64,000 nucleotides of DNA, from assembly GCA_004431415.1 (NCBI GenBank), contig QPMI01000430.1, positions 6,109 to 70,108 on the forward strand, in the 5' to 3' direction. Position numbers and translations under genes: made by a program. Source of the DNA: Cyanophora paradoxa CCMP329. Lineage: Eukaryota > Plantae > Glaucophyta. Positions 1-57,785 of this stretch are shown one piece after another. The stretch's first letter is position 1; every line of letters begins with the position of its first letter. The notes under the pieces are model-generated. The model searched no databases, was not told where the DNA came from, and was given only the letters and a program-made list of their open reading frames with translations.

Positions 1-1
1 A

Positions 2-5136: not shown

Positions 5137-5269
5137 TGTTACAGTATATTAACGGGAAGTCTTTAAGTGGGGATCACTTGTTTAATTGGTGGGGCTCACC
5201 TTGATTTTTCAATTTGGCTAACTGAAAACAGTCCGGAAACGATCGGGAACATTTCATTAAAATAGGGGT

Positions 5270-28133: not shown

Positions 28134-28504
28134 GAGATCTAGACGGGTCCGACTCGTCCGAGTCACCGACGCACCGTGGTCCGTACGCGTGGTCCCGGAG
28201 TCCGTGGACCGTGACCGTGGCCCTGACTGTGACTGAATCAGTCAACCCGAGGTTCAGTCAGGCTACCGTGCAAAAGCCGGGGAAAATGACCAGGAAATGG
28301 CAGGAATTGACCCAAGCGCGATCTATCTACTTCATTCAAGTTGCCAAGCATCAGGCAAGGCACGTTATGCGAGCAGAGAGGACGAGAAAAGGAGATTCGG
28401 CCCCCGCCTAGCGCAAGTCAGACTCCATTAGCCTCTTTCCATGCACATGGGCGCGCGGTTTCTTGAAGATTTCGACGACAGAAGATCATTTTTTGGTCGA
28501 CCCA

Positions 28505-28589
28505 ACACATAAAGAAATACAAATTTAAATCCCTCCGCTTCGCGCTTCGCGCTTCGCTCCTGGATTTAAATTTGTATTTCTTTATGTGT
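28505..28589. other. Terminal 85-nt hairpin (28-bp perfect stem, loop with 3x GCTTCGC)
   Basis: 28505-28532 acacataaagaaatacaaatttaaatcc pairs with 28562-28589. Confidence 0.95.
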
Positions 28590-28778
28590 AAATTAATCGA
28601 AAATATTTAAAAAATAAATCAAAATGTTTAATAAAATCAATTAAATTTAAATAAATTCGATTAAATTAATTGGTATAATATCAATTAAATTATGATTTTA
28701 TGAAATTTATATAAATTTTTGATAAATTACGTATTTCTCAATTGATTCAATGATATAAACGCGATATAACACAGAGTT

Positions 28779-29190
28779 GCATTATGTCCAATTAAACAAT
28801 CGATGAGATTGCGGCATATTTTGTTGGAAGAGATGGTTACTGCATTATGTCCAATTAAACAATCGATGAAATATCGGATGAAAATAATTCACTCGTTACT
28901 GCATTATGTCCAATTAAACAATCGTTGAGATTGCGGCGTATTTTGTTGGAAGAGATGGTTACTGCATCAGGTCCAATTAAACAATCGATGAGATTCGGGT
29001 AAGCTTTTTACTGTATCGAAAATGACCCCAGAGTTGCATTATGTCCAATTAAACAATTGATAAGATTGGATTCTGTTTTTTACTGTAAAAACATTGTATC
29101 TTAGGTGTATCAATCTCAATTGAATTAATCGATGTAATTTTGTTGGAAGAGATGGTTACAGCATTATGTCCAATTAAACAATCGATGAGA
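28779..29190 (+). repeat. Array of ~30-bp direct repeats in the TIR (iteron-like)
   Basis: gcattatgtccaattaaacaatcgatgaga at 28779, 28842, 28901, 28964, 29036 and 29161, plus a degenerate copy near 29107; mirrored in the right TIR. Confidence 0.9.
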
Positions 29191-29491
29191 TTTCGCTGAG
29201 ATGAAAACGGTTAGGCACTTTTTTATCGTGATCGGCGGATATCATTTAGATATAAAACGGGCTACTGAAATGGAGCGGGTTAATCGAAGTAGGCACTTTT
29301 TTTAATCGCGGTAGGCAGCGTAGGCGCGTTAGGCACTTCCTTATCGAGAATTAAAAAGAAGTCCCAAATACATCAACTTGTGTTTTTCAAAACGTTGATT
29401 TTATTTTTTATAGAGAGTTTCCAGAAAAGGTGCCTAAGTGCCTAACGTCAATTAAAAGTGCCTAACTTCAATTAAAAGTGCCTAACTTCAA

Positions 29492-29896
29492 TTAAAAGAT
29501 CCCTGAAAAGATCTCTGTTATTCTCTCATCTATGTTAACCAACCCTGAAAAGATCTCTGTTATTCTCTCATCTATCAATTTAGATATTACGGAGGTCTTA
29601 CTTTGCGCTTCGGTTCCGCAAGTGAATACATCAATCGCTAACATTCCTTGATCAGAGTAGCAATGAGCGGTGCAATGGCTCTCATCGAGAAGTAATACCA
29701 TCGCAAAACCCGGTGGCGAAACACCACCATCGAAAATCTCGCAATGCTTGTGAACAACTCGGATACCTTGTTCTTGAATAATAGTTTGTAAAAATTGCAT
29801 TAACCATGTTGTTGTGGTTTCCAAGTTCTCCAATCCCACCATCAATGGATGATTGAACTTGTAATCTAACATTACATGGGAACCGCGATGATTCAT
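29492..29896 (-). CDS. speD: S-adenosylmethionine decarboxylase proenzyme (pyruvoyl-dependent, small bacterial/archaeal class)
   Basis: G.H..LD N-terminus, LLLDESH autocleavage site, and H.Y...G..AIDVFTCG motif. The C-terminus is rearranged. Confidence 0.88.
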   Translation of the reverse strand: MNHRGSHVMLDYKFNHPLMVGLENLETTTTWLMQFLQTIIQEQGIRVVHKHCEIFDGGVSPPGFAMVLLLDESHCTAHCYSDQGMLAIDVFTCGTEAQSKTSVISKLIDERITEIFSGLVNIDERITEIFSGIF

Positions 29897-29936
29897 TTAT
29901 GAATTATATAGAAAAATAAAAAACGAAATTGGTAGG

Positions 29937-30092
29937 ATGCGAACCATCTTAGCGAAAGTATTTCCGTTTGAGTTGGTCGATATCATAATGCTCCATTATC
30001 ATAAGACATGTCCGAATTGCTTCGATACTTGCATTATTACAAGAAACAAGACTGGTAAAGTCTTAATTTCTTTATCCCGTCTCCATATGTAA
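29937..30092 (+). CDS. Small hypothetical protein (51 aa)
   Basis: ATG..TAA ORF MRTILAKVFPFELVDIIMLHYHKTCPNC.. filling the speD-methyltransferase gap. Confidence 0.4.
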   Translation: MRTILAKVFPFELVDIIMLHYHKTCPNCFDTCIITRNKTGKVLISLSRLHM

Positions 30093-30116
30093 TTTGTTTT
30101 TCTTTATCTATGGTAA

Positions 30117-30932
30117 ATGAAGACTCACTTTTACCATAAGTATGTCGGTAATAAATACAATGAAATGGATACAATCAATCCTTTTATCGATTTAGAAGGC
30201 ATAAATAAAATAATAGAACCATTTTGTGGTTCAGGTGCATTTAGTTTCTATCTTTGGGAAAAGCATAAAGAACGTTTTGATTACTTTATGAATGATAACG
30301 ACGAAACACATATACTTTTTTTGAATACAATGAAAGACCCTAACAGTAAAGTAAAACTTTTAGATAGTCTTCAACAGTTCGAAGCAGTAAGCAATATAGA
30401 AGAGCATAAAGAAGTTTATAAGAGTTTTCTACAACATGATCGTAAAGATGTAATGGATTACTTAGCCCATCATTTCTATCTTCTTAAAAACAGCGTTTTA
30501 AATGTTAAAACCCTCCGTGATTTCAAAAAACGGAACGTGAAGTTGAGTGCATATACAACTCTTAAAAAGAAGATACCTTACGATGATTTCCTACAAGATG
30601 TTAACTTATCTCTTGGGGATTATCTGGATATTGTGTTGAAATACAAAGATGATGAGGATGCATTCATATTTCTTGATCCTCCATACGTTAATAGCAATAA
30701 TGACTTTTACGAAAATGTAGAATCCGATTTGGAAAAATTCTTTTTGGATTTAGAAGATCTATTGAAGACCGCGAAATGCAAAGTTATGATGGTTGTTAAT
30801 GATGCTTTATTAATGAAATTGCTATTTAAACCCTTTATTCGACATACATATGGTAAAGTGTATGGTATATCAAAAAAGAAAAGGAAACATCTCATTATGA
30901 CTAACTACGAAATCAATCAAAATACAACATAA
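30117..30932 (+). CDS. DNA N6-adenine methyltransferase (Dam/D12-like)
   Basis: Y.G.K start, EPFCGSG AdoMet-binding motif, and FLDPPY catalytic motif. Confidence 0.92.
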   Translation: MKTHFYHKYVGNKYNEMDTINPFIDLEGINKIIEPFCGSGAFSFYLWEKHKERFDYFMNDNDETHILFLNTMKDPNSKVKLLDSLQQFEAVSNIEEHKEVYKSFLQHDRKDVMDYLAHHFYLLKNSVLNVKTLRDFKKRNVKLSAYTTLKKKIPYDDFLQDVNLSLGDYLDIVLKYKDDEDAFIFLDPPYVNSNNDFYENVESDLEKFFLDLEDLLKTAKCKVMMVVNDALLMKLLFKPFIRHTYGKVYGISKKKRKHLIMTNYEINQNTT

Positions 30933-32062: not shown

Positions 32063-32557
32063 TTATGGGGTTGGGTTATCAATCACATTCAAATATGCAA
32101 ACTCTCCTTTAATTTCGATTGCCCGGGCATTGTATGCTCTTGCAGCGTCTTCTTCTTTTTCAAAGTAGCCAATTATAATTTGTTTATAGTTGTGTCTGAT
32201 TTTTGCAAGCCATTTCTTCATTCCTTTACTCCAAGAGACACCTTTGTATTTACTGGTGGATTCTTTTGTAGTTTTGGGTTTGTTCATCTGATTCTGTGCA
32301 TGTGTGCATCTCCGAAGATTGGTTTTTCTATTGTCCAACTTGTCGTGATTGATATGATCAATCTGAATCTTAGGGTCAATTTCAGACATTGCATATCTGT
32401 GCGCCCTGGTGAGTGTTTGACCAATTCTGCAATTTACATAACCTCTCGTATCAATTGACCAAGTATACCTCTCAAACCGTTCTTTATCTTCATAATCAAT
32501 TTTCATAAACTTCCCATGACCTTTTTTTCCTGAGAGAGCGATTAAAGCATAATCCAT
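32063..32557 (-). CDS. HNH endonuclease with C-terminal AP2 domain (free-standing homing endonuclease)
   Basis: IDHINHDKLDNRKTNLR HNH motif and SKYKGV..W.A.I......GYF..EEDAARAYN AP2 motif. Confidence 0.92.
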   Translation of the reverse strand: MDYALIALSGKKGHGKFMKIDYEDKERFERYTWSIDTRGYVNCRIGQTLTRAHRYAMSEIDPKIQIDHINHDKLDNRKTNLRRCTHAQNQMNKPKTTKESTSKYKGVSWSKGMKKWLAKIRHNYKQIIIGYFEKEEDAARAYNARAIEIKGEFAYLNVIDNPTP

Positions 32558-33461: not shown

Positions 33462-33500
33462 TGCTTCTTTTACTAAGAAGGAAAGAAAAATAAACACCAT

Positions 33501-33812: not shown

Positions 33813-36800
33813 CTATACTGTGACATTTTTAATTTGGTCTATTTGACTTTGGAGATTTTCACATGTTTGTGTTAAATCTTTGCATTTCTTAGATAACTCT
33901 TTAACGGCTTCTATGAGAACTGGAATTAAACCCGTGTATTCGAGAGAAAGGTAACCATCTTCTTTTGTGACACTTACAATTTCTGGTATTACCTTTTCTA
34001 CATCTTGCGCAATTAAACCTAATTTTGTTCCGTCTTTTTCACTCCCAATTCGTTTAAAACTCACTCCTTCTAATTTTTCGATTGCTGAAAGAGCGCCGGT
34101 TATCTTTTTAATATCTGTTTTGTATCTTCTGTCACTTCCTTGTGTTAAATAATTGTTTATCCACATCCGCCCGTCATGATCGATCCAACAAATATCAGAA
34201 TCTAATTCATTTCGAAATCTTATTGGATAAGTTCCTCTTCCTTTCAAATATGTAGAACCATTGTTACCGAAATGAATTCGATTATATCCATCACTGGAAT
34301 TAAACCAAGTCTCCACAGCTCCTGTTAAGATATTTGGTTTACTATAAACATTATTCCAATGAATATAGCCGGTGTGACCACCATAGCTATGCCCAACCCA
34401 TATTTTCATATAACTTATACCCATAATATGAACTCTTCCTATCTTTGGTCTAATCCGAATAGTGAGGAATCGATTACCAAGATGTATTGGAACATTATTT
34501 ATACCACTGTGGTTACCATCAGGCGATGTGGCGTATGGTTGATAACTATTCACTGATGTAATAAAAACTTCATTCCCTTGTCTATTAACTCCCCAAATTT
34601 CAAAAAGTCGTGAGTTAGTCCAAGGTAAATAGGTTAAAAATGCTGTTCCTGTGTGGTATCCATCGGGTATATCGAAGTCAATCCAAGCGGTAGAAGTTTG
34701 GTCATCAGATTGATTATTATGGACATATGAACCATAATTATAATGTGGATCCCATGCTGAACTCCACGCCCATGTCCAACCCTCAGAACATCTATTAAAT
34801 GCAATGCCTCCTACTGTTTTATCTGCTGTGTGAAACTTTGGGACATCATTACCGTTTATTTGGAGTTTGGTAGTAGCATTAATAGTAGGTGCTGTAATAG
34901 TATTATTCACCCAAAAGTTACCATTGTTATAAGATTTTAAAATGGCTGTATCTGCTGAGTTTCTGAATTCAATTGACACAGCATCACCATTTGGTCTCCC
35001 TCGTATATATGTGCAATCGCCATTACCAAACCAAATTCGCTCGACTGCATCTACTGATTTTAACCATGTATTTGTTGGCCATGTTGCGGTTTGTGGAAGG
35101 TCTGCGGCTGAGTAAAATGATGGTTTACTAAATACATTATCCCAAGAGATCATGCCCAATTCATTATCTGTTGCTCTCTGTCTACTCCAACCGAAAACAC
35201 CCGTTAGATGAATGCGACCTTTTCGACCTTGAACATAAATATATTTGTAAAACTCACAATTGATTGAGGCAAACAAAATACAATTGTGTGTTCCATCTTG
35301 ATTAACTTCCTGAATTACTTGATAAGCATTTACACGCTTTAAGAAATGTTGATATCCATTAACAGTTTGCCCGTAGATATCGAAATATCTACAATTACCC
35401 CAAGGCATGTGCTGAATATAAAACGATTTCATACCTGTCGGAACAACCCACCTCATCCAACATCCGCTACAATCATCATCATTTTGTGGTGTTGTATAAC
35501 ATCCTGTTTGTCCGGTTCTTGGTGTCCATCCTGTAACAGTCCAATTATTTGCGCTTCTATCTGATGAAACCACATCTAATTGGTCGAAATCGTAACCTTT
35601 TGGTATTGTGGTTCCGCCAATTTGTAAAGTGGTAGCATTCACAGTTCCTGTTACAGTTCCACCTGTTAGAGGTAGATAATTAGCAAGTGCCGCCGTTAAA
35701 TCGGTATCTGTAACAAAATCTGTAACAGCTAACTGTAATTCTGTATTTGTAACATAATCTTTGTTTTCTAAGTAATCATCTGTAACAACACCGGAAAGGG
35801 TTGTATTGTGTAAGTTTTTCGCCGCCATTCTCTGATTGACTTCTAAGGCGCCACCTGATAACGTTTTTATCCACGCCATCTCACATTTTCCGTGATCATC
35901 TGTGGGTTGTCCCACAACAGGAAGGTAGTTTACAACTTTCTCCCTTGTGAAAACTATCTTAGGTCTTGCTCCATCATATGCGCTTTGATCTGTTACATTT
36001 ACTTGTATCGCTGCTGAAAAATCCGCTACTTGTCCTGTTTCACCCGGGTGATAATTCGTGACATAGATACTGGGGAAAGTATCATTAATTCCTACATTAA
36101 AATCGCCACTATACACTCCATTTACGATTGGATCCCTGGGTAATCTTACTGCAAGAGTTCCCACCATCGGTGTGCCGTCTTGACCTGTAAATGAACCATT
36201 GAGACTAACATAATGATCATTCAAAAATAGCCTTTCAGGTGTATTACTCGATTGGTAAAGTGTGACTCCATTAAAAACGTTTCCGATTGCATTCAATTGG
36301 GCAAAAACTGGCTGTTCGTCTATTTCGTCCCAATTGTGCCTATGTGCAAAATCTGTGATTTGCGCTTTTGTGTGAGTATGGTCAAAATCTGTGATTTGCG
36401 CTTTTGTGTGAGTATGGTCAAAATCTGTGATTTGCGCTTTTGTGTGAGTATGGTCAAAATCTGTGATTTGCGCTTTTGTGTGAGTATGGTCAAAATCTGT
36501 GATTTGCGCTTTTGTGTGAGTATGGTCAAAATCTGTGATTTGCGCTTTTGTGTGAGTATGGTCAAAATCTGTTATTTGCGCTTTTGTGTGAGTATGGGCA
36601 AAATCTGTGATCTGATCTTTGGTGTGTGTGTGGTTTTGTATCCAACCTTGAACCACATTAGAGGTTGGATGATGAGGTAAATTTGCATTGCTTATAACTG
36701 TAAGGTAATCTATTACAGTATCAGGTGAGGTTATTTTTAATCCTCTGTAAATATTCAGAGTCTGGGTATGAGTGAATCCATATTTTTGTTGAATGTAATA

Positions 36801-39703
36801 CCTCACAGCATTCTTTTCAGAAGTTGTCAAAGCCCTATTGAAAACAATCAACTCGGAAATACCACCATTCACAATATTACCAAATCCGAAATGATTGACA
36901 GTATTATCTGGTAGATAATTCGTTCCTACAAGTGTTTGAATATCTACTCCATTTAACCCGACTGTGTAGCTGTTTGGAGTAATTGTTTGGTCAGTGTAAT
37001 ACCATGTATTTATTAAAGAAGGAACCGTAATAACTGGGCGGGTTTGGGATACTCCATTAATAGTAAACTGGTTCATTCCAATAGCAGTAGAAGATGTTGC
37101 CCCATAATAACAATATCGTGATGGAGAGGCGCTTCTGTAAAGTCTCAAATGAACTTGCATAGAAGAGGTAGTTGGATGATATTTTCCCACAAAGAAAAAT
37201 GTAAGCCCATTTGAGAAATCAATAGTCCTTGTAGCAGAGGTATATGCATAAAAAGTGCCTGTTGGGTTTGAAACACTAACTTGGTTGTTGATTTCGGGAT
37301 TGGTGTAATAGGAACTGACTCCGGAGATAAACAAGTCTGGAACAACTGAATTTGGGACTCTACTTATTATAGTTGTATACGTTGCTGATTGACCTGGTTC
37401 TCCTGATGCCTTCCAAGCAAAAATGCAGTTCGAGATATTTAATGCTGGATCAAAGCTTGCTGGAACATCATACCATTCTCTGTAAACTTGATTCATGGTA
37501 TTAAAATTGCCTGAACCAACTGTAAGAATTCCATTCACTTTTAGGTTGCTGGTCTCTATGTTGCTACTGTAAATATTACTATTAACCGTAAGATCTCCTG
37601 TGATCGTCCACCAACAAGCGGAAGATATTTAGATAATTCCGCGGCAAATTCAGGTTTTGTTACATAATTTCCAAGCATAGCAAGAGTAACGAAATTAACG
37701 AGAATTACAGCCGTTAGGTAATCTTCTGTTACCACTCTCGAAATATCTTCATTGTGTATATTTTTTGCAGCCATTCTTTGATTGGCTTCGAGAACCCCAC
37801 CATAATCTGTTTTAATCCATGCAAGCTCTGCCCTTCCATAATTATCATTTGCAGTTCCCACTATGGGAATGTAGGAATACTTATCTCTGCTGAATACTAT
37901 CATTGGTCTTGAACCATCTAAGCTGCTTACATCTGCTACATGAACCTGTATAGCAGAGTTGTAATTTTGGTAGGTTGCTGGGTCTGTTGGGACTCTGAAT
38001 GTATCTGTGGGAATGTCAGCCTCCATGTAGCTTGACACAAAGATATTTGGTATGGTTGCTCCTGGTTCAGGTGGTGGATTATAAGAGCCTGGTAATGTCC
38101 TAATATGAAGTGGTCCTCTCATAGCTGAATTCGCAAGTGTCCCATTCACATGAACATAGTGTTCATTCAAAAAGATCCTTTCAGGGACATTGCAAGTCTG
38201 GTAAAGAGAAACTCCCAGAGTAGCAAGAGGCTCTACTTTTGCGAATTCTGGTTGGTCATTGATCTCATCCCAGGTGTGTTCATGGTTGCTTGCTGCAAAC
38301 TTATCTGGTATCCCATCCAGATCACCCCAATCATGCCTGTGATCCTCTGGTGGGAATTTCTCTGGTTTACCTAAGATCTCATCCCAGTCATGGTTGTGAT
38401 CCTCTGGTGGAAATCTTGCTGGTTTGTTATTGATCTGCTCCCAATCTGGGAAGAACTCCCAAATCTCTGGGCGAAATCCATCTGGTAATAATTCTTCATG
38501 GGGTTCATATGGTTGCTCATAATCAACAACTGGTGGTTCGAGACCATCTGCTAAATATTCCTCATGGGGTTCATAATTCTGCTCATATTCATACTCTTGT
38601 GGATCTAAACCATCTGGTAAATACTCTTCCTCATTGGGATCATATTGATCATATTCATACTCTTGTGGGTCGAAACCATCAGGTAGGTATTCCTCCTCAT
38701 CTGGAACGAATTGGTATTCGTCAAGCTCCAAAATATCAATTTCAGGAGGTAAATATTGCTCATCAATTTGCTTTCTTGGTTCAATTATAGGTTTATTTCG
38801 AACTTGCTCCCAACTCACAATGTGTTGACCAAAAGGAACTGTCTCATCTGCTGTGTATTCTCTTCCGGGTTGTTTTTTTGGTGTAAGATCTGGTGGATCC
38901 CATGGTAACGGAAATGGAACTGGAACAGGTCCGTAATGTTCAAATATTTCTCTTATCGTTTTCTCACTAACAAGTTTCTCGCCATTTGCATACACGTTGC
39001 TACCGTGAATATTTCGCCACTGTCGGGTTCTAATACCAAGATCTTTTGTGTTTGAAAACAAAGGTAGTAAATGTCGATCCATTTCGACAAGATCGGGATG
39101 TAGATGAATCGCTACTGGTTGAGTGGGACTACTATTAATGGTTATTGATGGTTTTTGTTGGTGAACGTCTTTCGGAGTAAAAAACCCAAAAGGTTCATTT
39201 TTCGCAAAATCATAAGTAATGTCTTTTGGGTATACATTATTTGTGATACATACTTGATTCGCATTAGGAAAACTACCTACTTGTAAGATTTGTGATGACT
39301 CGACGATTGGTGTGCTACCTTCATTATAAATTCTTAGACCTGTATTCTGTTTACCTTTCTCATCTTGAACATTAAACACTAATCGCCCACTATCGAAACG
39401 CGTCGGAATATCGGGATGGGTTTTACTTGTTTTAAGTTTCCGTTGTCTTCTTGTTGCTTTAATTTCGGCAACTTCGTTTTTTTTAACGTCTCCCAAACTG
39501 AAAGCAATACTTACATCTTCTCTGTTTGGGTCTGTTTGATTCAGCGATAAAGCATGCTCTCTGGATTGCGTCTTACTGGGTTTATCTGCGCTCTGATCAA
39601 TAGAAGCCGACCCTTTGATGGTGATATTATCGAAATTCACATGTTTCGGGTTTGTTTTACCACCACTTATTGTTTGTAAATTTGCTGGATAATTGAAACT
39701 CAT
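33813..39703 (-). CDS. Giant fibre protein (~1960 aa) with C-terminal peptidase S74 intramolecular chaperone; split by a 1-nt frameshift at ~37607
   Basis: Restoring one base gives YLPLVGG-TITGDLTVN.., matching the internal repeat YLPLTGGTVTG. Also has HxH fibre repeats, a LamG-like domain (ISELIVFNRALT), and SDRRYKTDI..GLIAQDVEKVIPEIV..LIEAVKEL. Confidence 0.82.
36340..36635 (-). repeat. 36-bp coding tandem repeat (HTHTKAQITDFD, ~8 copies)
   Basis: aaaatctgtgatttgcgcttttgtgtgagtatggtc repeated almost perfectly. Confidence 0.95.
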
Positions 39704-39752: not shown

Positions 39753-41309
39753 ATGCCTCAAAAGATCGTTTTAGCGTTGTCTGGTGGAGGTGCGCGTGGT
39801 ATCATCATAACAAGGTTACTAACAGAAATTGAAAATAGAACTGGTAGACGTATAATAAATCTTGTCGATCTTGTAAGCGGAACATCCACAGGTGGTATAA
39901 TTGCTATTGGGTTAAACATCAGACATCCTGAGATGCCCTATGAACCGAAACTAACCGCTAACGATTTGCATAATATATATCTAACACAACTACCGTTAAT
40001 TTTTGCGAATCCGCGAAATATCATTGAAAATGCCCTTTTCAATACAAAATACGATGCTACACCACTGGAAAGTGCGATTTATTCAGTAACTGGTGAATCA
40101 CTCATAAGAGATTCTCTAAAAGACATTGTGATTACATCTTTTGATACTCAATATATGAAACCAATATTTATAACAAACGATAACAAATACAATTTTTTGC
40201 CGAATAAAATAGTAGCGCGTGCTACATCTGCTGCTCCAACATACTTTTCACCTGTTAGCATTGTAGATTTCAATAATGGCGTAATTGCTTCTCTGATTGA
40301 TGGCGCAATTTCAGGAAACAATAACCCAAGTGTATGCGGTTATAGTCATGCAAAAAAGATTTATAATGAAGATGATGAAATTATAGTTATAAGTATATCT
40401 TGTGGTGAGGTTGATGCAAATTTAGAATCTGAATATTTCGGATATGCTTATGAGACTGTGAATAGCTGGGGTATTCTTTCATGGATTGCTTCAACAGAAG
40501 GAAGCCCATTAATTAATATGCTAATGGCTGCAAGCGAACTATCCGCTCTTGATAAAATGGAAGAATTACTACCTCCAAATCTTGACCAAGGATATAATAG
40601 ATATTTCCGTCTTTCTGTTCCGCTTCCAAATGATATAGTTCGATCACTTGATGATACATCTAAGATACCTGAAATGCTCGCATTCACTGAAACGTATATT
40701 GCTGCAAATGACGCTATGATAAATAGACTCTGTGATTTACTTGTAACAAATTATGAGATTAATAACCCTGTCAGATCGTATATATCTTCCACTCTTAATA
40801 ACATACCTCCCATTGACGCTAATTGGTATCTTCTGTCAGATAATGCGTTTTCTGCTTCGTCTGCGAAATTCGGAAAAGAGGCATTTAAAGCCCGCCCATC
40901 ATTAACAGGATGGGAAGCGAACGCATCCGCCATAAACGGAGTATGGGAAACGCCAACTGAATATTTGCAAATTGCTTTTCCATATACATATGAAATCGCT
41001 TCTATAATTGCTTATGGTTCAGGTATAACAACTGCGTTTATTAAAACTTTCAATGTTGCGACATCGCAAGATGGTTTAACATGGTCCTTCATCAAATCTG
41101 ATGGTGTAAATAGAATCTTTGTATGTGAAAATATAAATAATGCTAATAACTCTGGGGATGTATCATATAACGGGGGCTTTCCGCTTGCAATAAACGATGT
41201 TTTCTATATAGGTTTCCCACTGAGAACAAGATATATACGAATATATCCGTTGGTATATATAAATGCTCCGACCATGAGAGTCGATGTGACGGGCGCATTT
41301 ATACGGTAG
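39753..41309 (+). CDS. Patatin-like phospholipase fused to a discoidin (F5/8 type C) domain
   Basis: LSGGGARG oxyanion motif, GTSTG nucleophile, ATSAAPTYF and DGA. C-terminal EYLQI..F.V..SQDG..W..TRYIRIYP..MRVD. Confidence 0.9.
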   Translation: MPQKIVLALSGGGARGIIITRLLTEIENRTGRRIINLVDLVSGTSTGGIIAIGLNIRHPEMPYEPKLTANDLHNIYLTQLPLIFANPRNIIENALFNTKYDATPLESAIYSVTGESLIRDSLKDIVITSFDTQYMKPIFITNDNKYNFLPNKIVARATSAAPTYFSPVSIVDFNNGVIASLIDGAISGNNNPSVCGYSHAKKIYNEDDEIIVISISCGEVDANLESEYFGYAYETVNSWGILSWIASTEGSPLINMLMAASELSALDKMEELLPPNLDQGYNRYFRLSVPLPNDIVRSLDDTSKIPEMLAFTETYIAANDAMINRLCDLLVTNYEINNPVRSYISSTLNNIPPIDANWYLLSDNAFSASSAKFGKEAFKARPSLTGWEANASAINGVWETPTEYLQIAFPYTYEIASIIAYGSGITTAFIKTFNVATSQDGLTWSFIKSDGVNRIFVCENINNANNSGDVSYNGGFPLAINDVFYIGFPLRTRYIRIYPLVYINAPTMRVDVTGAFIR

Positions 41310-41827: not shown

Positions 41828-43228
41828 CTACTTTCGCGAACCGGATCTTAGATTTACCCGGGTTTGAGGTGCTGAATATGTCTCTTTTGAGGTCTGGAAG
41901 TCTGTATACCATCTCTGACTGTTGACTTCTGATAGTTTCTGGGTTCCTGCTATGGTTAACTTCTTTAATTCACGCTCCGCCTTCGCTTTCTTCTTTGTTC
42001 TGGCTTGTGTTAACGGTTCTTCTGGGACGTCATCCGCTTTTTCGATGCCTTCCTTACGAATCGCCGAATCGACCCGGGCTTCTTCTTTCGCTTGTTCAAG
42101 TGCATCCACTGTGGGCGCTTCGTGATACTCAACACCTTTGATAGGTAACAGTTCGTGGAAAGCGAATCTCCCTTCGACCATTTCGCCGTTCGGATTTCGC
42201 AACCTGAACTTGAAACCCTCTCTCCCTTCGACAGTATAGACGATTCGCGACCAATTGACACCTTGTTTAGCGAATGGGTTCTTTTCTATTCTCACTCTCA
42301 CAAACATACCCTGTTTCACACCATCTAAGTAAGCCATTGACTTCTTGAACCTCTCATCTTCTAATCCGATAATCTCACGGTAATGATCTTCCGTCGTTTC
42401 TGCTGGTTTTCTCTTGGTTGCTGAGTGGATGGTATTATTATAGTTATACTCAATGTCTCCCAATACATCGAAGAATCGCGCTGTGTTGTTTGCTATGCAA
42501 TAGTTCGTGATCAATCGTTTGATCTGCTTGTTAAACGCTTCGATTCTACCTTGGCTTCGATGATCTGCGACATCGCTTATCTGATGGTCTATGAACTTCT
42601 TAGCAAGGTAATTCGTGAACATGTTATTTGTGAACTCGCTTCCGCTGTCACTCTGAACGCGTGCGATAGGTCGAGGAACTCTTCGTTGTAGCTGTTCAAA
42701 CGCCGCAAGCGCCGTAAGAGCGCTCTTATCTCTCATCGGAATGATGTAACCCGTGCGTAAGGTAGATTCCATCGCGGACATGAACGTATCGTATCCGTCG
42801 TTTTGGTTCTTGTATGCTGGGAAGAAGAGCAGATCGATTACGTAGGTATCGAGAGGTTGCCGAATCGGAATCATCGGATCTCTCTTTCTTGAAAGGGTCG
42901 GTGCGTTTATCTGAACGACTTCCTGTTTATCATACCATTCTCTCATCTTCTTGTAGTCTTCCTCTGGTAGTTCCTTTCTCATTGCCCCGAAACCTTTGTA
43001 ACCTGTGCGCGGATCGTAAAACTTCTTCGCGATCTTCGATTCTTTCGTTGCAGTCTCAGTAGGTAATGCCTCCGGGATCAGTTCTTTAACCATCTCAGAC
43101 TTCTTCAAGATTCGCGTGTTCTTCTCTTCGACCGGAATAGTGATCGGTAGCATGTTCCCTTGGTCTTCTTTCATGCTCTTCTTTACAATTTTAGGGACTG
43201 GTCGCAATCCTATCTGTGCTGAGGGCAT
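41828..43228 (-). CDS. Retroviral-type (rve, DDE) integrase
   Basis: YVIDL, VQSDSGSEF and GRIEAFNKQIK catalytic D-D-E, plus YNNTIHSAT. Intact ORF, consistent with the 6-bp TSD. Confidence 0.93.
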   Translation of the reverse strand: MPSAQIGLRPVPKIVKKSMKEDQGNMLPITIPVEEKNTRILKKSEMVKELIPEALPTETATKESKIAKKFYDPRTGYKGFGAMRKELPEEDYKKMREWYDKQEVVQINAPTLSRKRDPMIPIRQPLDTYVIDLLFFPAYKNQNDGYDTFMSAMESTLRTGYIIPMRDKSALTALAAFEQLQRRVPRPIARVQSDSGSEFTNNMFTNYLAKKFIDHQISDVADHRSQGRIEAFNKQIKRLITNYCIANNTARFFDVLGDIEYNYNNTIHSATKRKPAETTEDHYREIIGLEDERFKKSMAYLDGVKQGMFVRVRIEKNPFAKQGVNWSRIVYTVEGREGFKFRLRNPNGEMVEGRFAFHELLPIKGVEYHEAPTVDALEQAKEEARVDSAIRKEGIEKADDVPEEPLTQARTKKKAKAERELKKLTIAGTQKLSEVNSQRWYTDFQTSKETYSAPQTRVNLRSGSRK

Positions 43229-43413: not shown

Positions 43414-46400
43414 TTAAAGACCAAATGGAATGCTGTGAATGCCGTCGGCTGATATCTTCCGTTTGCTATCGAGTTGGTTTAGAGCGACCCTTCTGCTCTC
43501 CAAGTCATATAAGTTGTGGTCTTGCCTTCGCTTGTTTGTTACTGATACTGTTTTTATGATGCCTTCGAACAGACATCTCTTAAAATCATCAAAATGAACC
43601 TCTTTCGAGGAAGTCCCCGACATCTTTACTCTTTCGTTGGTCTCAGTTCTGAAAGCATAGAGTTTCGATCTCAGACCCACATACTCCATGATCTTTGCAT
43701 TTGGGAACTCATTTTTATATTTACCTGGAACCATGCGGTTTTTGATACTCACGAGAGGATGGGATTTATCGTAATTGCTCCTATCGAGATACTCACCTAT
43801 CTCTTTCATATCTTCGTTCAGATTATTGGTTTTCAGGAAAAGACAGAACGAATCGGTATCGTGGAACAGTAATTTAGCGGTTTCCCACTTCCTCCTTACC
43901 ACATCGTAGAAGAACCGATAATTATGCAGCTTCGCGAAATCCAAAACGAAAGCGCCAATTGCTACGGGTTTATCTAAGTTAACATGCTTCGAATACATCT
44001 CAAAGGCAACTGCGTTTTCGTTTAATACATTGGTCGCCTTGATAAGCGGACTTGCTGCGTATTTCTTACAGAGTTTCTCACTGTTAGCGATCTTGACAGT
44101 TGAGCGACCCCTGCAAGATTCCAAACATTTACCGTAAATTGCATTGTTCATGAGTTTAAAGAAGTCGCTTTCGAAATGGTTAGTAGATTCATGCCTGAGA
44201 AGAGTATTCAGACCAATGTAAGACTTCATGAATGGGGAAGTAGCGAAAGAGAGAACCTTATTTATTTTCTTGATTTCAACACCCTTCTTAACGATGTAAT
44301 TAAGAAGAGGTCGAGCAATCACGTATTTATTCTTGGGTGTAAATGTCGCTGTAAGTTTGGGGTCTTTGCTGATCTTTTCGCCCGTCAGATCTAATAGTTT
44401 CTGTTGATAATCACCAAGCATCTCATTGGTGATCACTTCTTTATTCACAATCAGTGGGAAATCATAATGTTCTTCAAGCGATGTGGGGTATTCAAGGTCA
44501 ACTTCAATAAATGCGCTTCGACCCTCTACCTCTTTAAGTGCCTCTGTGACATCTTCCCATCGATAATCTCCGATAGGTAGTGGTTGGCTGAGAGCATACC
44601 CATAAAGATTATTTGCATCCAACAGAACTATATGATCGTCAGCATTCTCTACCTTTGCGTATCGTGTGGGCATGGTAGCAAATCCACCTCTAATGGCTCT
44701 CTCAACAAATTCGTATTTCTCTACATCATCGATAAGTTCAATCTTAACTTTCGTATGTTTGAGCATAGCGTCCCAAGAGAGACCTGGTGCGCTAACATAA
44801 TGTGCGGGATCCAATCCATATTGAGAAAACGCCAATTTGCGGAATGCTTCAAACTTTCTCATTAAATCGCCCACATCCACAGATTGGAAATCCATGAAAT
44901 GGGAAGCATCAATGAACTTCCACATGCCCATTGAAGCGATAGGTATTGATCGAAATTCTTGCTCAGAATCTCAACACGAAGTTTATCGTCTTGCTGTGCA
45001 ATCTTGCGGAATATTCCGTGTCCGCATTCATCCATGTGATCCACCACGATAGCTACTTTGGTTTGCTTCGAAATTCGCCGGTGGAGGTTACAGTTTCGGC
45101 ATGCCTTTCCGATGAAATCGCCGGATTGGTGGCAATGATCTCGAACCGGGAAGTTTTCGTGGGTGAATCTCTGAGAGCAAATGTAACAGTGTTTTGTTAC
45201 CTTGTATTCCGCCTTCTGATCATCTGTGAGTGGATGCATCGGAATATTTCTAAATAGCGTCTCAACGATTTCGGGTCTGATATCTTGGAGAGTTACAAAG
45301 AGAGAACCGAGCGGATCGATTCCCTCGAAATGGTATGCTCTCACTTCGTCTCCCATTACCACTCGCAATGAAACCGCTTTAATCTCACGTTTACTCCTCT
45401 GAGCATCAATAGCGACCGAATGATCTTCGACTTTAACGTAACAGATCACAGGGAGCCACACAGTTTTACGCAAGTGTTGCAGACCGAATTCAATTACGCT
45501 TCCCGCTTTTGGGCATTTGCCTTTGCTCTCCCTCCAATCAATGCAGCGATTCGCTTCAACATGCATGTCTAATTTCTCCTGAGTTCTGAAACGCGACAAG
45601 CAGGTTTCACAGTAGTAAATGCGACCATCACATGCTTTATCAAACGTAGTTTTCAGAAGACGACTAAAAGACATGATAGTAATGTAGTGTCCCCGATCAT
45701 CTTCGGTGTTTTCGATAAGTAAAAGATTAATCTTGGTCTTTCTTCTTGGGTTACTTGATTGATGGAGAGGATAGAAACACTCTTTGGCGTTATCGGCTCC
45801 GTAAATGTTAATAGAGAGTTCGGGGTTCAGTTCTTCGAATCGATCGATTACCTCAGCATCACAGGCAACGGGAAACTGAATACCATCGAAATTGAGTTCA
45901 TTTAACCATCGGCGGTATTGGCTCGGTTCGTTACTCTTGTGTTTATTGATGTCCTTTCGATGCAGGTAAGCCAAAATCGCATACTTGAAGCAATCTTGCC
46001 CGTCGATATTCTTAACATTCACCGTCGCTTTCTTGGATGCGATCCATTCGGGAGTTGCGAAATAGCATCCTCCCACAGGTGCATAAGACATGATAATGCC
46101 TCTAAGTATTTCGATCTTCTCTAAACGGTAACTATCCACTTGCGTCATCTCCTCTTGCATTTTCTGTAACGCTTTGCGAACTTCTGTGTCTATGTTGCGG
46201 GATCGGGTAATTACGAAATAATCGCTGTAAATGAATTTGGTGATATAGATGCGCGGATTACCTACTTTGGTGAATTTGCAAACGAAAGTAAGACGGACTT
46301 TAACCGCTCTCAGTTGATCTAAGCGGGTTCTAATGCGTTGCGGTAGACTTGGTGCGATTCTTTCGAGGAATTCGATAGCATCCACGACAACTTCATTTCG

Positions 46401-46694
46401 GGCGCGATAGGTCAACCACGAATACGCTTGATTCATTGCTTGACCATCTTCAATGTCCGGGTCAATTGCTCCTAATCTCTGTCCTTCATCCATGAACTCC
46501 TCCATCCTCTGCATGCGATTGTAGAGGTCATTTGCAATCTCAGTGAGTTGTCCTAATCGCGGTCGTCTATCTAAGATGGCGGCTTCTCTATCGTATTCCG
46601 CTTCGGTGATCTCACCTGTAACTAAGAGAGTTCCTAACAATCCAAGTATTTCATTTTTCTTTTCTTTGATCAGTCTGTTCGTTTGGCGGGGCAT
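43414..46694 (-). CDS. polB: Protein-primed family B DNA polymerase, split by a 1-nt frameshift at ~44930
   Basis: Motifs DANNLYG, KLMNNAIYGK, HDTDS and GLRSKLYA. Polinton-type N-terminal N..DCFKYAI..GHY region and C..C..VRDHCH.SG..G.AC..CN Zn insert. Confidence 0.93.
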
Positions 46695-47328: not shown

Positions 47329-49718
47329 TTACTCATCATCATCATCAAACTCAACAACAGTAGGTGTCTTATCAATCTTCTTCACACCCTTGTAGCCACG
47401 ATCATAACCAGTTCCAACCTTCTTGCGAACTGCATTCTTGTCATATTTCGCTCCAAGCAAACCCATCACAGTTTTAATGCGATTTGCAGACATATTCAGT
47501 CTCAGTTGCTTGATCTCTTGCTCAACCATCTTGGAAGTTACAGAGTCGGATGAATTTCGAGTGAATTCGAACACTGATCTGATCAGAGACATTTCATCAC
47601 CTGCATCTTCCCGGAATTCATTAATATCCTCAGCAACCTTCCAGAAACCACGAATTTCTGAGATTTGTAGGCTTCAAACACCATCCATTCGAATGCTCTA
47701 ATTATCTCAGGACTTTTTAGCAGAACACTCTTGATATCTTCCGAAGCCAATCTCACACAAGGAGAGTTCATTTCCTCAACAGTCTTTTGATCAACGAATT
47801 TGTGGGGGTGCTTGAACAATACCATGGTTTGAAGGGTATCAGATGGGGAAATGGGTGGAACATCATTCATGATCATCCACAAACGACTTTGGAGGCGAAT
47901 ATTGACCTCATTTTCATATAGAACACGCATGCATTGAACATCACCACCAGATTCCTTCTTTTTGATCATTGCACCATTCACCTTAATATTTGTGTTTGAG
48001 ACATCGAATTTCATCTCTTGGGTGAATGTCAGACGACGAAATTCACAAGGTTTCATCCACTTTAACTTGGAGGTATCGTTGTCATCTGAGTTCTTATTCA
48101 GCAAGAATGCCTCCCCACTGATGGTGTGCACATATCCACTTCCCCAGGTATTTTCATTGAGATTCACATAAACCCCTTACCACAATTGCGTTCACCAATT
48201 GATAATCCCCACTGTTTATCTTCGTATTTCCCAGCCATTGCACGAGCTGTAAATTCCAGAGCAGAAGAAATCGAATCATTTCCGAAAACGGGTTCCAGAA
48301 TCTTGTCGAAAAGGGTTTGAATATCCGAATCAGATGGCTTGATCACATATCCATCTTTGTCAACAAGAAGATCCCTCTCGATTCGAGTGGTAGAATAGAT
48401 CTTGTCACATTTGTCCCATGGTGTGAGCTTCTTTGTCTCGAAATCATACACACCATTTCGGTAGCACAATTTTCCAATGGTCGATGACCACATAATATCA
48501 TTGTAGAACACACGATTATTGGGCAGAAATGCTTTGGCTGTCTTGATAATTCGATCTGCCCCAGTAAGATTGGTAGAATATGGCTTCAAGTTACCTTTGT
48601 CATCCTCCTTGAACATATAGCACTCCATGCACAATTTCAACATTATATTGTAGACCATTGTGGAATCATCAGTCCACAGAAAATCGTCTGTCTGAGCGAA
48701 TATACGACCATCAGACATGACCACTCGCCCTCAATCGATTTAACAAATGTGAGAGCAGCTTCACGATCATCCCGAACAATATTAAGAGGAGAGGATACAC
48801 TTTTTGAATTTGTTGGAATCGTAAATCCTTGATCCATTGGTTTAATCATCAACTCAATCTTGTAGCCAGTGACATTCTCAATATACTTGGTAGCATCACA
48901 GAGAATATTGTGGAGACGAGTTTCGGGTAATTCAGGGCTTTTTCAACCATGCAACCATCATAAACGAGAACGCCAACTTTTACAGCAAGTGAGGTTAAAT
49001 ACTGACAAAGCGCAATCAGACATTCATTCTCCAATTTGCAGAGAACCATATTAATGGTTGAACCAAAGATGTTATACTCCTTCTTTCGCTTGCAAATCAA
49101 GAAGAAGTTGTGGTTTTCGGGCATGCTTGCAATTTGAGCGTGAATTCCTGTGATTTCGTTCTTAACTGCTTTGAACTTGGGTGGTTCAGCAGTTCCTTGT
49201 TATCAATTGAGCCCCACCCCGTTTACAACAGAAAGAAACGCTTTCTTGATATCTTCGCGAGAAAGTCCCGATTTCTTGCTTATATCAGCAATGATACTAT
49301 CACGATTGTCGACATAATCAGTAAGACCCTCACAAACGATTTCATTTTTTTCACAATACTGAATGAGAAGTGTGGGATGCGCATTTTTCATATCGATATC
49401 GTAGTAGAAATCGCGAGCAAGAGTGTGGCGGAATTCTCTGGGCATTCCTTGCATTGATGCTTGCTTCTTCTTGATGTGTTCAAGATTCACGAAATAACGA
49501 CCAGTATTATGCTTGCATTGATGATATTTAACTTCAATGCGCCCATCTCGCTTCAAATCCTTGAAATAACGTTGGAGAAGGGTGAGAGTAGCAGTTGCAT
49601 CAATATCAGGTCGATACTCCAAAGTCTCGAAATTATCAATCAGGTATTTGAGAGTGGAGCGATCCACCTTCTCAAAGAGAGCGATTTTAAGTCCGTTCGG
49701 TTGCTGAGAGTTGAACAT
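47329..49718 (-). pseudogene. PolA-like primase-polymerase (TVpol-type) fused to an SF3/D5-like helicase, broken by multiple frameshifts
   Basis: GRY..SMQGMPREFR..YDIDMKNAHP (PolA motif A-like), LVYDG (motif C-like), Y.NGVYDF (D5-N) and GERNCGKG Walker A, spread over 6 ORF fragments. Confidence 0.8.
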
Positions 49719-51367: not shown

Positions 51368-52150
51368 TTACAGTCCCCTCTTATATCGCATCAACTTATT
51401 CGTGTGAACAGCGCTTTTAATCTCTTTCGGCGCTTCCTCCTTCTCAGGCGGTTTTAATTCATCTTCTTTCTTTTTAGGTTTGCGATGGAAACGCGGGAAA
51501 TCAAAATCACCAACTAATTCCGCTTTATCAACATAATACCCTACGTTATATTTGAATGACGTATAAACGATAAATTGGTATGAGTGGACATACTCTTCAA
51601 ACATCTTATAGAAATCTTCTTTACGGGGAAACGTAGAATACTCTTCGGCGAAAGCTTCTAATTCTTTCTGATTACTTGCACAAACCATAATTACGATATC
51701 ACAATTACAGCGAATCACACTTGCAACCTTGCGCAGTTTTTGCGAAATGCAGACGAGGGAACAGTTCACATGTCTTGATCTTACGAAAAGCATTCCCACT
51801 GTTTTGTCTCGTGTTAAATCCAATTGGTCATTTTCAACCATATCTTCTAAAATAATCAGCATATGGTTAAGTTCTTCTCCTCTTTCCTTCTTTTCTTCAC
51901 GATCTTTAAGAACCTTAGAAATGTATTTTGCATCCCAGGCGCCCAATTGAACAGTAGCCGCTTTATCCCAGTAATGCGTGAAACTTGTAGCGGAGATAAT
52001 TAACGTTGTATCGATCTTTTTCGCATCATGAAGCTGTTTCAAATAATATTTTACCGCCTCAGTTTTCCCGCACGCCGACTTCCCAAGTATCAATAATCGG
52101 AACGGTGGCTCAATCATTTCAGCGGCATTAAACTCTTCTAAATCCACCAT
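51368..52150 (-). CDS. A32/FtsK-family genome packaging ATPase
   Basis: LILGKSACGKT Walker A, LIILED Walker B, RSRHVNCSLVCISQ and IRCN. Confidence 0.93.
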   Translation of the reverse strand: MVDLEEFNAAEMIEPPFRLLILGKSACGKTEAVKYYLKQLHDAKKIDTTLIISATSFTHYWDKAATVQLGAWDAKYISKVLKDREEKKERGEELNHMLIILEDMVENDQLDLTRDKTVGMLFVRSRHVNCSLVCISQKLRKVASVIRCNCDIVIMVCASNQKELEAFAEEYSTFPRKEDFYKMFEEYVHSYQFIVYTSFKYNVGYYVDKAELVGDFDFPRFHRKPKKKEDELKPPEKEEAPKEIKSAVHTNKLMRYKRGL

Positions 52151-52210: not shown

Positions 52211-53608
52211 TTACATATTTATACGCCTTATTCCATCTTTGTCCAAAATTACGAACGAATGCATGAGAGCGCGGACGTTAACAGTAATTGTGCGATCAGC
52301 AGGAAGATACAGAGTGAGGAACGATGAAGACGAGTTCGTAAGGTCAACATATCCAGATTGGGCAATGTTGCGAATCGCCTTCTCACCATCAACACAGAAT
52401 GGAAGACCAGTAAGGACGTAACGGTTTGCTTCCTTGTCCATATTCGAGCATTTGAAGGCATCGGCGATGAGTTCCGCACCTTTAAGTAGCGGGATTGGCT
52501 CAGTTGAATACAGACGCTGTCCGTTAATCTCACAGGTCATCGTGATATCCTTCGCATTCGCAAGCGTTTTAAGGACGCTGTGAGAACCGTTAGAAGAATC
52601 GACACCATCAGCATCACGAACAGAGACAAGAAGAGCATAAACCAGACCAGAGATTTGGCTAAGATTGATTCGGTTGGGTTGAGTGTTACCTTTCGCAGCA
52701 ACACCAATAGCATCGACGAAACCGATATCGAGAGCAGGAATAGCCATCCCCGTGGTCTTAACCTTCTCAATAACAGTTGCAAACAGTTCATCTGAAACGT
52801 TGATAGCATGCATGTAGAGACGAGGAGACTTAATGGAGATGTAATGGGTCATTGGTGGAACAGTTCCAGCAACTTCGAACCCAGTAATACCGCCAGTGGT
52901 AATGTTTTGACCGACATTAGCAAGAGTTACACCAGTAGCGCTTCCGAGACCGTCATTTGCGGTTTGATCCGCAGCGGTTGTCACAACTGGAAGAGCGCGA
53001 CCGCCATAAGAAGTTTCAAGATATCCCTTGTTAGCTTCTTTGAACCAAACAGTGATTACGGCTTCACCGCTCAGAGCGCCAAGAGGTAGGTAGTGGTTCA
53101 ACCACGGCACCGGAATTTCAACGAAGAAAGCGCCACCTTTACGGTTGGTTCCGTGAGCGGGAATTCCATGAAGCATTCCCATTGAACGCTTCTTTTTCGC
53201 CAGCTGATCCTCAGAATAGTAGACCAGTGGGAAAATCGCAAGAAAATCGCTTGGGACGTGGTAGGTATACGATCCATACGAGAATTCAAGACGCTCTACA
53301 AGCGCACCGATGGGACGGGTGTAACCATTTCGCACCAGGTCGGTATCACCTTCAAAAGCCGTTAGTTCGGGAAGGTCGAAAGCGAGTTCGATTTTACCAA
53401 CAAAGTTGTAGCGGGGAAGTTTGAAAGAAACGCGTTGACCAACGTTGTTGTCATAGGTTGTCGAGGGACTAACGGTTACCAGAACGGGTTTCGTCTTCGA
53501 TTCGAGACCAAGCATAAGCGAGTTATCGAGGAAGAACGCTTTGGCTTCCTCGGGCGTTGTTAGCGCCTCTTTCAGAGAAAGACGTTGAAGGGTCGAGGTA
53601 ACATCCAT
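52211..53608 (-). CDS. Double jelly-roll major capsid protein
   Basis: 465 aa, beta-rich, with F.LPR..FVGKIELAFDLPEL and LVERLEFSYG as in PLV/NCLDV capsids. Sits between the ATPase and penton genes. Confidence 0.82.
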   Translation of the reverse strand: MDVTSTLQRLSLKEALTTPEEAKAFFLDNSLMLGLESKTKPVLVTVSPSTTYDNNVGQRVSFKLPRYNFVGKIELAFDLPELTAFEGDTDLVRNGYTRPIGALVERLEFSYGSYTYHVPSDFLAIFPLVYYSEDQLAKKKRSMGMLHGIPAHGTNRKGGAFFVEIPVPWLNHYLPLGALSGEAVITVWFKEANKGYLETSYGGRALPVVTTAADQTANDGLGSATGVTLANVGQNITTGGITGFEVAGTVPPMTHYISIKSPRLYMHAINVSDELFATVIEKVKTTGMAIPALDIGFVDAIGVAAKGNTQPNRINLSQISGLVYALLVSVRDADGVDSSNGSHSVLKTLANAKDITMTCEINGQRLYSTEPIPLLKGAELIADAFKCSNMDKEANRYVLTGLPFCVDGEKAIRNIAQSGYVDLTNSSSSFLTLYLPADRTITVNVRALMHSFVILDKDGIRRINM

Positions 53609-56299: not shown

Positions 56300-57672
56300 A
56301 AAGTAAGACCTCCGTAATATCTAAATTGATAGATGAGAGAATAACAGAGATCTTTTCAGGGTTGGAGAAAGCGGAGAAGCAGATAGCAGCGCGATTTCCG
56401 AGTTAATCACACTGTTAATGGTTTGGTAGGCACTTTATATTTCTCAGATAATGAAAGTGAATATATCATATCTCTATGATTCATAGATGTCTTACTGAAT
56501 ATCGTTTGGTAGGCACTTTTTAATTGAAGTTAGGCACTTTTAATTGAAGTTAGGCACTTTTAATTGACGTTAGGCACTTAGGCACCTTTTCTGGAAACTC
56601 TCTATAAAAAATAAAATCAACGTTTTGAAAAACACAAGTTGATGTATTTGGGACTTCTTTTTAATTCTCGATAAGGAAGTGCCTAACGCGCCTACGCTGC
56701 CTACCGCGATTAAAAAAAGTGCCTACTTCGATTAACCCGCTCCATTTCAGTAGCCCGTTTTATATCTAAATGATATCCGCCGATCACGATAAAAAAGTGC
56801 CTAACCGTTTTCATCTCAGCGAAATCTCATCGATTGTTTAATTGGACATAATGCTGTAACCATCTCTTCCAACAAAATTACATCGATTAATTCAATTGAG
56901 ATTGATACACCTAAGATACAATGTTTTTACAGTAAAAAACAGAATCCAATCTTATCAATTGTTTAATTGGACATAATGCAACTCTGGGGTCATTTTCGAT
57001 ACAGTAAAAAGCTTACCCGAATCTCATCGATTGTTTAATTGGACCTGATGCAGTAACCATCTCTTCCAACAAAATACGCCGCAATCTCAACGATTGTTTA
57101 ATTGGACATAATGCAGTAACGAGTGAATTATTTTCATCCGATATTTCATCGATTGTTTAATTGGACATAATGCAGTAACCATCTCTTCCAACAAAATATG
57201 CCGCAATCTCATCGATTGTTTAATTGGACATAATGCAACTCTGTGTGAATTTTTGCGTTTTACGATAGAATGGGCGGTGGATTACTACAATCGTGATTAT
57301 ATCACAAATTTATGTTCCGTCAATCGAGATTATATCGAATTTGCATAAAATACATATTAATCGCGTTTATATCAATCGCAAAATACGTATTTTACATTTA
57401 AATACAAATTAATCGCGTTTATATCATTGAATCAATTGAGAAATACGTAATTTATCAAAAATTTATATAAATTTCATAAAATCATAATTTAATTGATATT
57501 ATACCAATTAATTTAATCGAATTTATTTAAATTTAATTGATTTTATTAAACATTTTGATTTATTTTTTAAATATTTTCGATTAATTTACACATAAAGAAA
57601 TACAAATTTAAATCCAGGAGCGAAGCGCGAAGCGCGAAGCGGAGGGATTTAAATTTGTATTTCTTTATGTGT
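56300..57672 (-). repeat. Right terminal inverted repeat (terminal hairpin at 57588-57672)
   Basis: Reverse complement of the left TIR; carries two blocks absent on the left. Confidence 0.93.
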
Positions 57673-57785
57673 GACCCACGTCAGCTTTAGATGGAAAAAG
57701 CCCACAGGGGGGCACGCGCTCCCAGCAGGGTGCTGTATGGGAGATAATGGGACTGAGAAAACGTCAGTCAGCCAAAAGCTGCCAG

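Follow-up and report, generated by a model that had tools for sequence, protein, structure and literature searches.

The question raised by this locus is what a gene of the speD family is doing in a virus integrated in the genome of Cyanophora paradoxa CCMP329, and whether it has any business with the DNA methyltransferase (MTase) gene beside it. The first-pass annotation had taken the product for an AdoMet decarboxylase (AdoMetDC) that might supply polyamines or, by draining SAM and making dcSAM, blunt host silencing while the virus methylates its own DNA. By the window we mean the whole stretch of 64,000 nucleotides that was analysed (contig QPMI01000430.1, positions 6,109 to 70,108), and all coordinates are those of the window. 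The locus consists of:

29492..29896, minus strand: SpeD-fold pyruvoyl decarboxylase, likely an arginine decarboxylase (ADC) of the SpeDA type (Pfam, motifs, fold, tree)
29937..30092, plus strand: 51-aa ORF between speD and the MTase gene (a diverged sister copy retains the frame)
30117..30932, plus strand: D12/Dam-class N6-adenine DNA MTase (Pfam, motifs; candidate target GATC)

The described head-to-head arrangement is right as to the divergent orientation of the two outer genes but not as to direct adjacency, since the 51-codon ORF at 29937-30092 lies between them. This ORF has no match in NCBIfam or PHROG; in the diverged sister contig 6 of 9 residues are alike, on a by-eye reading of a loose contig end.

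The element that carries these genes, 28505-57672 (29.2 kb), is an endogenous Polinton-like virus (PLV), with a GC content of about 36-45% against 50-84% in the surrounding host DNA. Its parts, apart from the locus itself, are:

28499..28504, plus strand: target-site duplication, left copy (GACCCA, 6 bp, matching 57673-57678)
28505..29504, no strand assigned: left TIR, two blocks of 261 and 736 nt, both 100% identical to the right arm
32063..32557, minus strand: HNH-AP2 endonuclease (Pfam)
33813..37538, minus strand: fibre-like protein with an S74 chaperone domain (Pfam)
39753..41309, plus strand: patatin-like phospholipase with an F5/8 domain (Pfam)
41828..43228, minus strand: rve-type integrase (weak Pfam match; consistent with the 6-bp duplication)
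43414..46694, minus strand: family B DNA polymerase in two frames, with a break near 44930 (PHROG, tblastn)
47583..49718, minus strand: primase-helicase in several ORFs, disrupted by a stop codon in frame near 49203 and by frame changes
51368..52150, minus strand: A32-like packaging ATPase (Pfam)
52211..53608, minus strand: likely double-jelly-roll major capsid protein (MCP; ESM Atlas features)
56511..57672, no strand assigned: right TIR (repeat comparison with the left arm)
57673..57678, plus strand: target-site duplication, right copy (GACCCA, 6 bp)

The earlier description of a small integrating virus is thus borne out by the fully identical TIR arms, the GACCCA on both sides, the integrase, the A32 ATPase and the capsid gene. 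The PLV hallmarks found are the TIRs, the target duplication, the integrase and a size within the 15-40 kb range, together with core genes recognized by Pfam (A32), by PHROG and tblastn (polymerase B) and by Atlas features only (MCP). For the MCP these features match the Capsid_N/Capsid_NCLDV clusters with a score of 0.98 at a low recognition value, and a single eukaryote record is 57% identical; a scan of viral contigs with the single MCP sequence gave no matches. The right TIR arm holds 165 nt more than the left between its two blocks. The copy in the window is decaying, its polymerase and primase-helicase genes being broken and the 3' end of speD altered, and the HNH-AP2 endonuclease gene is present in some sister copies only, certain contigs skipping 32063..32557. 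A promoter scan returned fewer sites than shuffled sequence did. Two further features of the element were seen: a 187-nt internal copy of TIR sequence (47078-47264, 94-95% identical), situated between the genes for polymerase and helicase, and, at the termini (28519-28589 and 57588-57672), a long palindrome that is GC-rich at its centre and has the potential to form a hairpin.

The speD product is a protein of 134 amino acids that matches Pfam AdoMet_dc above the cut-off (E 4e-12). The cleavage site ESH (E72-S73-H74), H78 and the TCG motif with C93 are all kept, and S73, H78 and C93 align with S63, H68 and C83 of the Thermotoga maritima AdoMetDC. An AlphaFold model (pLDDT 89.6) found AdoMetDCs as its five best Foldseek matches, those of T. 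maritima and Aquifex among them (E 1e-7 to 4e-7), and the protein is a class 1b SpeD fold. The claim of a SpeD with intact ESH and TCG motifs therefore stands, and so does that of a missing spermidine synthase, for which there was no match in the 27 main element ORFs (>=80 aa) scanned; nor was there a match to agmatine deiminase or agmatinase among the element ORFs scanned. Hypermodification of the DNA with polyamines was also considered and dropped, any transferase or kinase of such pathways being absent from the ORFs scanned.

Fold and catalytic residues are compatible with more than one substrate, and here the sequence following the cleavage site is informative. In the window protein the post-cleavage motif is HCYSD, against HTWPE in AdoMetDC; the validated AdoMetDCs that were compared all have WPE, and the window SpeD lacks its proline. 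A homologue search with the single sequence gave 125 matches, 120 of which were listed and 119 of these bore ESH; among the matches listed, none of the 119 had WPE and 97 had AHCYS, and the named ones came from Thalassarchaeaceae, Thermoplasmatota, Planctomycetota and Hydrogenedentes. According to PMC10407285, ADC activity is marked by the loss of one conserved proline, which we infer to be that of WPE. In two trees the window gene falls inside a clade with Poseidoniales (support 100/100 and 99/100) and outside the WPE-type sequences; the assayed ADC proteins themselves stand outside these trees, so that the link to ADC is made through taxon, gene order and motif. As to gene order, a deoxyhypusine-synthase-like speY lies within 5 kb at 77 of 80 GTDB loci (the best 80 of 531), a count that covers near-relatives, as the alignment used for the scan was rich in Poseidoniales. 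A spermidine synthase match was absent from 4 of 4 Poseidoniales genomes, and in a fifth genome (G005) a speD of the WPE type lies next to speE and an HCY-type gene next to speY; the genomes may be incomplete.

PMC10407285 places proteins of Ca. Poseidonales, marine group II/III, Gimesia, Solirubrobacter, Nannochloropsis and Tribonema in one clade, for which it gives arginine as the sole substrate among the amino acids tested; those of Poseidonales, marine group II/III, Gimesia, Nannochloropsis and Tribonema were assayed as ADC. Members of the SpeDA clade failed, where tested, to complement an E. coli ΔspeD mutant (PMC10407285). Judged from these sequence relationships, the substrate of the window SpeD is probably arginine. 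A supply of polyamines remains plausible, most likely by way of arginine and agmatine and not by way of SAM, since the assayed members of the lineage decarboxylate arginine. For the same reason the idea of a SAM drain is unsupported: it requires a true AdoMetDC, and the protein falls in a lineage published as arginine decarboxylases, members of which did not replace one in E. coli where this was tried. The same source holds speDA to be useful only where enzymes leading from agmatine to putrescine exist (PMC10407285).

One alternative explanation is that the gene encodes a true AdoMetDC after all, which would either feed a host spermidine synthase, making a viral one unnecessary, or deplete SAM and produce dcSAM against host silencing. 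The fold and catalytic residues are the same as those of AdoMetDC. Moreover, the view that SpeD homologues of viruses have changed substrate holds for those of phages, whereas the eukaryotic-virus homologues tested are true AdoMetDCs (PMC9992855). Against this, the score with the AdoMetDC equivalog TIGR03330 is 50.1 bits, below the cut-off of 75.65, the WPE proline is missing and the gene is nested in the speY-linked clade. A drain on SAM would, we reason, also starve the virus's own MTase. This alternative draws further on the neighbouring gene, since in one phage (L001:7253-8894) an N6_N4 methylase gene lies directly upstream of a speD that retains the proline, near the terminase, and a second phage (L002) has the same order. 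However, no SpeDA-type speD was found at any of 79 Dam-like viral loci collected with an alignment of the MTase, and the one speD among them, in a T4-like phage (L244), is of the WPE type, at a distance of about 7 kb. Taken together we consider a true AdoMetDC unlikely.

A general link between speD and MTase genes is not seen from the other side either: a Dam-like/D12 gene was found at none of the six small-virus SpeDA loci, in the parts examined, four of the loci being partial and other MTase classes having been sought by Pfam in selected ORFs. A scan of viral contigs with the single MTase sequence gave no matches. The two genes are likely neighbours by coincidence, and a separate role for the MTase is suggested by the composition of the element. 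The MTase has FxGxG and DPPY motifs and scores 63.3 bits with PF02086 against a cut-off of 22, though it falls below the cut-off of TIGR00571. In the element (29605-56300), observed over expected counts are 0/76 for CTAG, 0/76 for CTNNAG, 0/75 for GTAC, 2/44 for GGCC and 4/44 for GGNCC, and TGSCA occurs once; GATC, at 140/147, is at expectation, and several other palindromes are likewise unavoided. Flanking host DNA has the avoided sites at normal levels. This pattern fits a genome that meets restriction nucleases, with some sites purged and others methylated. MTases occur in most PLVs and have been proposed to protect them from giant-virus restriction (PMC10120064; bioRxiv 10.64898/2026.06.19.733378; 2026.05.28.728513), and here too the MTase likely protects the element's DNA. 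The MTase is thereby accounted for without SAM draining, because the site pattern fits avoidance combined with methylation against nucleases. The avoidance is an independent clue that this PLV family replicates alongside a nuclease-armed partner, and we found no report of restriction-site avoidance in virophages in the literature. A second AT-rich element, at 1-5300 of the window, is also without CTNNAG, CTAG and GGCC.

As to where the gene came from, the closest loci with DNA context, at 48-52% identity to the window gene, are on giant-virus contigs. One (L003:9959-10384) accompanies an NCLDV capsid gene, an mRNA triphosphatase and D5; another (L004:3656-4045; the closest set also includes L005) accompanies chitosanase, Erv1, RNase III and D5. 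The window gene shares a clade with L003 and L004 (support 97/85, 98/99; 95/98). The affinity to giant viruses is that of the sequences with known gene context; P0001-P0003, P0004 and P0008, also in the clade, come without context. On this phylogenetic placement the likely source of speD is a giant virus that infected the same cell, the direction of transfer being the one we infer. A eukaryotic host may have been the donor instead, as most of the nearest sequences are without known context and the identity to the nearest sequences in the trees is 48-54%.

Giant-virus contigs (L003, L004, L083, L084, L247, L249) carry SpeDA-type genes, of two subclades. A wider viral scan added six small viral contigs of 4-20 kb with a SpeDA-type gene (L248, L250, L252, L253, L254 and L085, the last being the least certain), four with an A32 ATPase and four with a primase-helicase. 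L252 has a capsid-like protein by Atlas features, with a predicted fold at pLDDT 29.5, and its profile matched neither the window MCP nor the PDB. The SpeDs of the small viruses, a group defined by gene content prior to the tree, form a separate subclade beside other giant-virus sequences. At least two separate exchanges of speD between giant and small viruses are implied, whichever way each would have gone, because a single clade of the small-virus SpeDs and the window gene was rejected (AU p=0.011). The INPHARED phages gave 4 weak matches only.

We propose, with a probability of about two in three, that this PLV encodes a SpeDA under purifying selection that was derived from a giant virus and makes agmatine from arginine, and that the MTase has a separate job. 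The proenzyme would cleave itself between E72 and S73 to create the pyruvoyl cofactor, and the mature enzyme would convert arginine to agmatine. During virus replication, enzymes of the host or helper virus could then turn agmatine into putrescine and further into spermidine or homospermidine. The MTase, for its part, would mark sites, GATC being the candidate, against restriction nucleases, which may be the same pressure that purged CTAG, CTNNAG, GTAC, GGCC and GGNCC.

The same enzyme evidence would equally suit an ADC turned against the helper, in which the virus, once reactivated, would draw off arginine or swamp the cell with agmatine and in this way lower the yield of the giant virus, so protecting the host population. 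PLVs have been described as antiviral in protists (PMC12220804), and the element ORFs scanned include no downstream agmatine enzyme. However, a pro-viral use is suggested by the closest relatives, which are genes of giant viruses, and marine members of the clade have a low kcat/Km and would make a poor sink (PMC10407285). We hold this use of the enzyme to be quite improbable.

Another possibility is that the viral subclade has shifted once more, to ornithine or some other substrate. The branch of the window SpeD is long (0.56-0.66 in two trees), shifts recur in the SpeD fold (PMC10407285; PMC9992855), and decarboxylation of ornithine would need no downstream enzyme. Nevertheless, the four residues typical of SpeDC (Gln, Thr, Phe and Tyr near the cleavage site, as seen in the SpeDC domains of Fig. 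S5) are replaced in the window protein by Leu, Glu, Cys and Ala, and the SpeDC enzymes form one separate clade (PMC10407285). The chance of such a further shift appears very slim.

The proposal of a SpeDA in use by the virus is strengthened by variation among sister copies, which was collected from nineteen DNA runs of one organism that held at least half of the sampled words. From 74 variant rows the 40 best supported were taken; 38 lay inside the ORF, and once 4 located in a gapped zone had been left out, 34 changes were counted, of which 25 were synonymous against 21% expected (p 5e-11, to be read as indicative, since the rows combine several copies and are those with the best support). Absence of speD from sister copies together with a lack of purifying selection, which had been named as a refutation, is contradicted: the gene is present and its changes are mostly synonymous, and speD is clearly maintained as a protein by purifying selection across the sister copies. 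That speD is a neutral passenger without function in the virus is scarcely credible, for although in the window copy the C-terminus is altered and the replication genes are broken, the strong synonymous bias contradicts this for the family and the gene also occurs in separate small viruses. A stop at codon 75 was considered as a sign of a pseudogene and rejected, a second change in the same contigs turning the stop into a missense codon. For the MTase, 4 of 12 variant rows were synonymous, these being few and selected.

The 3' part of speD sits in TIR-derived sequence and has been rearranged in the window copy. The features concerned are:

29501..29575, no strand assigned: 33-nt direct repeat (29501-29533 and 29543-29575) altering the SpeD C-terminus
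29539..29604, no strand assigned: 66-nt speD segment common to the right end (56300-56365; repeat comparison)
56300..56406, plus strand: right-end copy of the 3' part of speD, with a frame ending in an RF motif

The repeat gives a duplicated stretch of 11 residues at the C-terminus, taking the place of the last beta-strand, in which the register and the Phe are kept and the Arg is lost. A conserved Arg in the last strand of the SpeD fold matters for processing. In the clade of the window gene this residue is part of RF, in the Fig. S5 domains of AdoMetDC part of RG, and it is missing from the window copy; a C-terminal RF or RY is present in 112 of 117 full-tailed homologues among the matches listed and absent from the window SpeD. 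In 4 of 4 runs there are sister contigs that pass at 29539 into the form seen at the right end; a single X20 contig covers both the speD core and the RF-type ending. The usual allele carries the RF ending of the family, and the window allele is the altered one, because it is into the right-end form that the sister contigs continue. The window allele may be impaired. In the AlphaFold model, on the other hand, the duplicated stretch still forms a strand (E119-129), so that the altered end may leave activity in place. The junction (29470-29537) has zero contig cover in 4 of 4 runs, which fits a single-copy lesion and an assembly error alike, as contigs drop rare variants. Loose contig ends at 29606 (X3) and 29686 were seen to belong to a more diverged speD subfamily of the same organism with an ending unlike the TIR-borne form, and speD is older than the present TIR because this subfamily ends differently.

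Among known systems, the window gene most resembles the SpeDA described in PMC10407285, sharing the class 1b fold, the Ser/His/Cys triad and the lack of the WPE proline, with close relatives in Poseidoniales that lie beside speY and are without speE. It differs from that SpeDA in being encoded by a PLV that is without speY, agmatinase or deiminase, in being nearest to giant-virus genes and in missing, in the window copy, the C-terminal RF. The pyruvoyl ADC of pelagiphage HTVC201P and the SpeD-derived ornithine decarboxylases (ODCs) of phages are also viral SpeD homologues without a spermidine synthase, and are thought to raise putrescine via host enzymes (PMC9992855); they belong, however, to bacteriophages and to a different branch, close to SpeDC, whereas the window gene is from a eukaryotic integrating virus. 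The class 1b AdoMetDCs (T. maritima 1tlu and 1vr7; HaV01; Yellowstone Lake phycodnavirus 2) share the fold (TM about 0.6), the cleavage site and the catalytic Cys, but the window protein has HCYSD and not HTWPE, is 19-23% identical to the solved structures and scores below the equivalog cut-off. In chlorovirus PBCV-1, a DNA virus of eukaryotes, agmatine likewise comes from arginine; the enzyme there is an unrelated, PLP-dependent, ODC-derived ADC within a full pathway (AIH, NCPAH and HSS) (PMC9992855). The element itself is like other endogenous PLVs in its TIRs, polymerase B, rve integrase, ATPase, MCP, MTase and GC contrast with the host, for a published size range of 15-30 kb, but a search of main text of those surveys found no SpeD or polyamine gene named (PMC10120064; 2026.06.19.733378; 2026.05.28.728513).

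Polyamine genes of viruses and the SpeDA enzymes are already known, as are MTases and auxiliary genes in PLVs. The statement that metabolic genes are rare in PLVs is right only in part. Polyamine enzymes of viruses have been described from phages and large eukaryotic viruses, with SpeD-derived ADCs among viruses only in phages (PMC9992855), and in the available text of that paper we found no mention of SpeDA-type genes in giant viruses. The literature search found no report of a polyamine enzyme in a PLV or virophage, although the supplements of the PLV surveys could list one, and a search for speDA in viruses likewise turned up none for these groups. Should the enzyme be an ADC, part of the coding capacity of a 29-kb virus goes, under selection, into a polyamine enzyme, other small viruses gained SpeDA separately and giant viruses carry unrecognized SpeDA; viral polyamine metabolism would then extend to the smallest integrating DNA viruses, and there would be a concrete handle on the interaction between PLV and helper virus. 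Perhaps, as a tentative and rather doubtful extension, a pyruvoyl ADC has passed repeatedly from giant viruses to PLVs and virophage-like elements, which use it to control the flux from arginine to polyamines in the co-infected cell, fuelling their own replication or starving the helper. This would be the first polyamine enzyme in the PLV/virophage class and, among all viruses of eukaryotes, the first SpeDA.

Some minor observations complete the description of the window. Two of the top profile matches, P0156 (328 aa) and P0157 (309 aa), have two SpeD-type stretches each and are possible tandem fusions within this clade. The host flanks (5.5-12 kb, 18.6-23.9 kb and 59.7-64 kb) consist of three GC-rich blocks, paralogous and in tandem, that match P-type cation ATPases weakly, and the PLV is inserted between two of them. 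The second AT-rich element is represented in the window by its end, with five or six ORFs on one strand, of which one with a C1q domain (3333-4328) has an N-terminus in common with 31209-32039 and 32607-33500 in the PLV.
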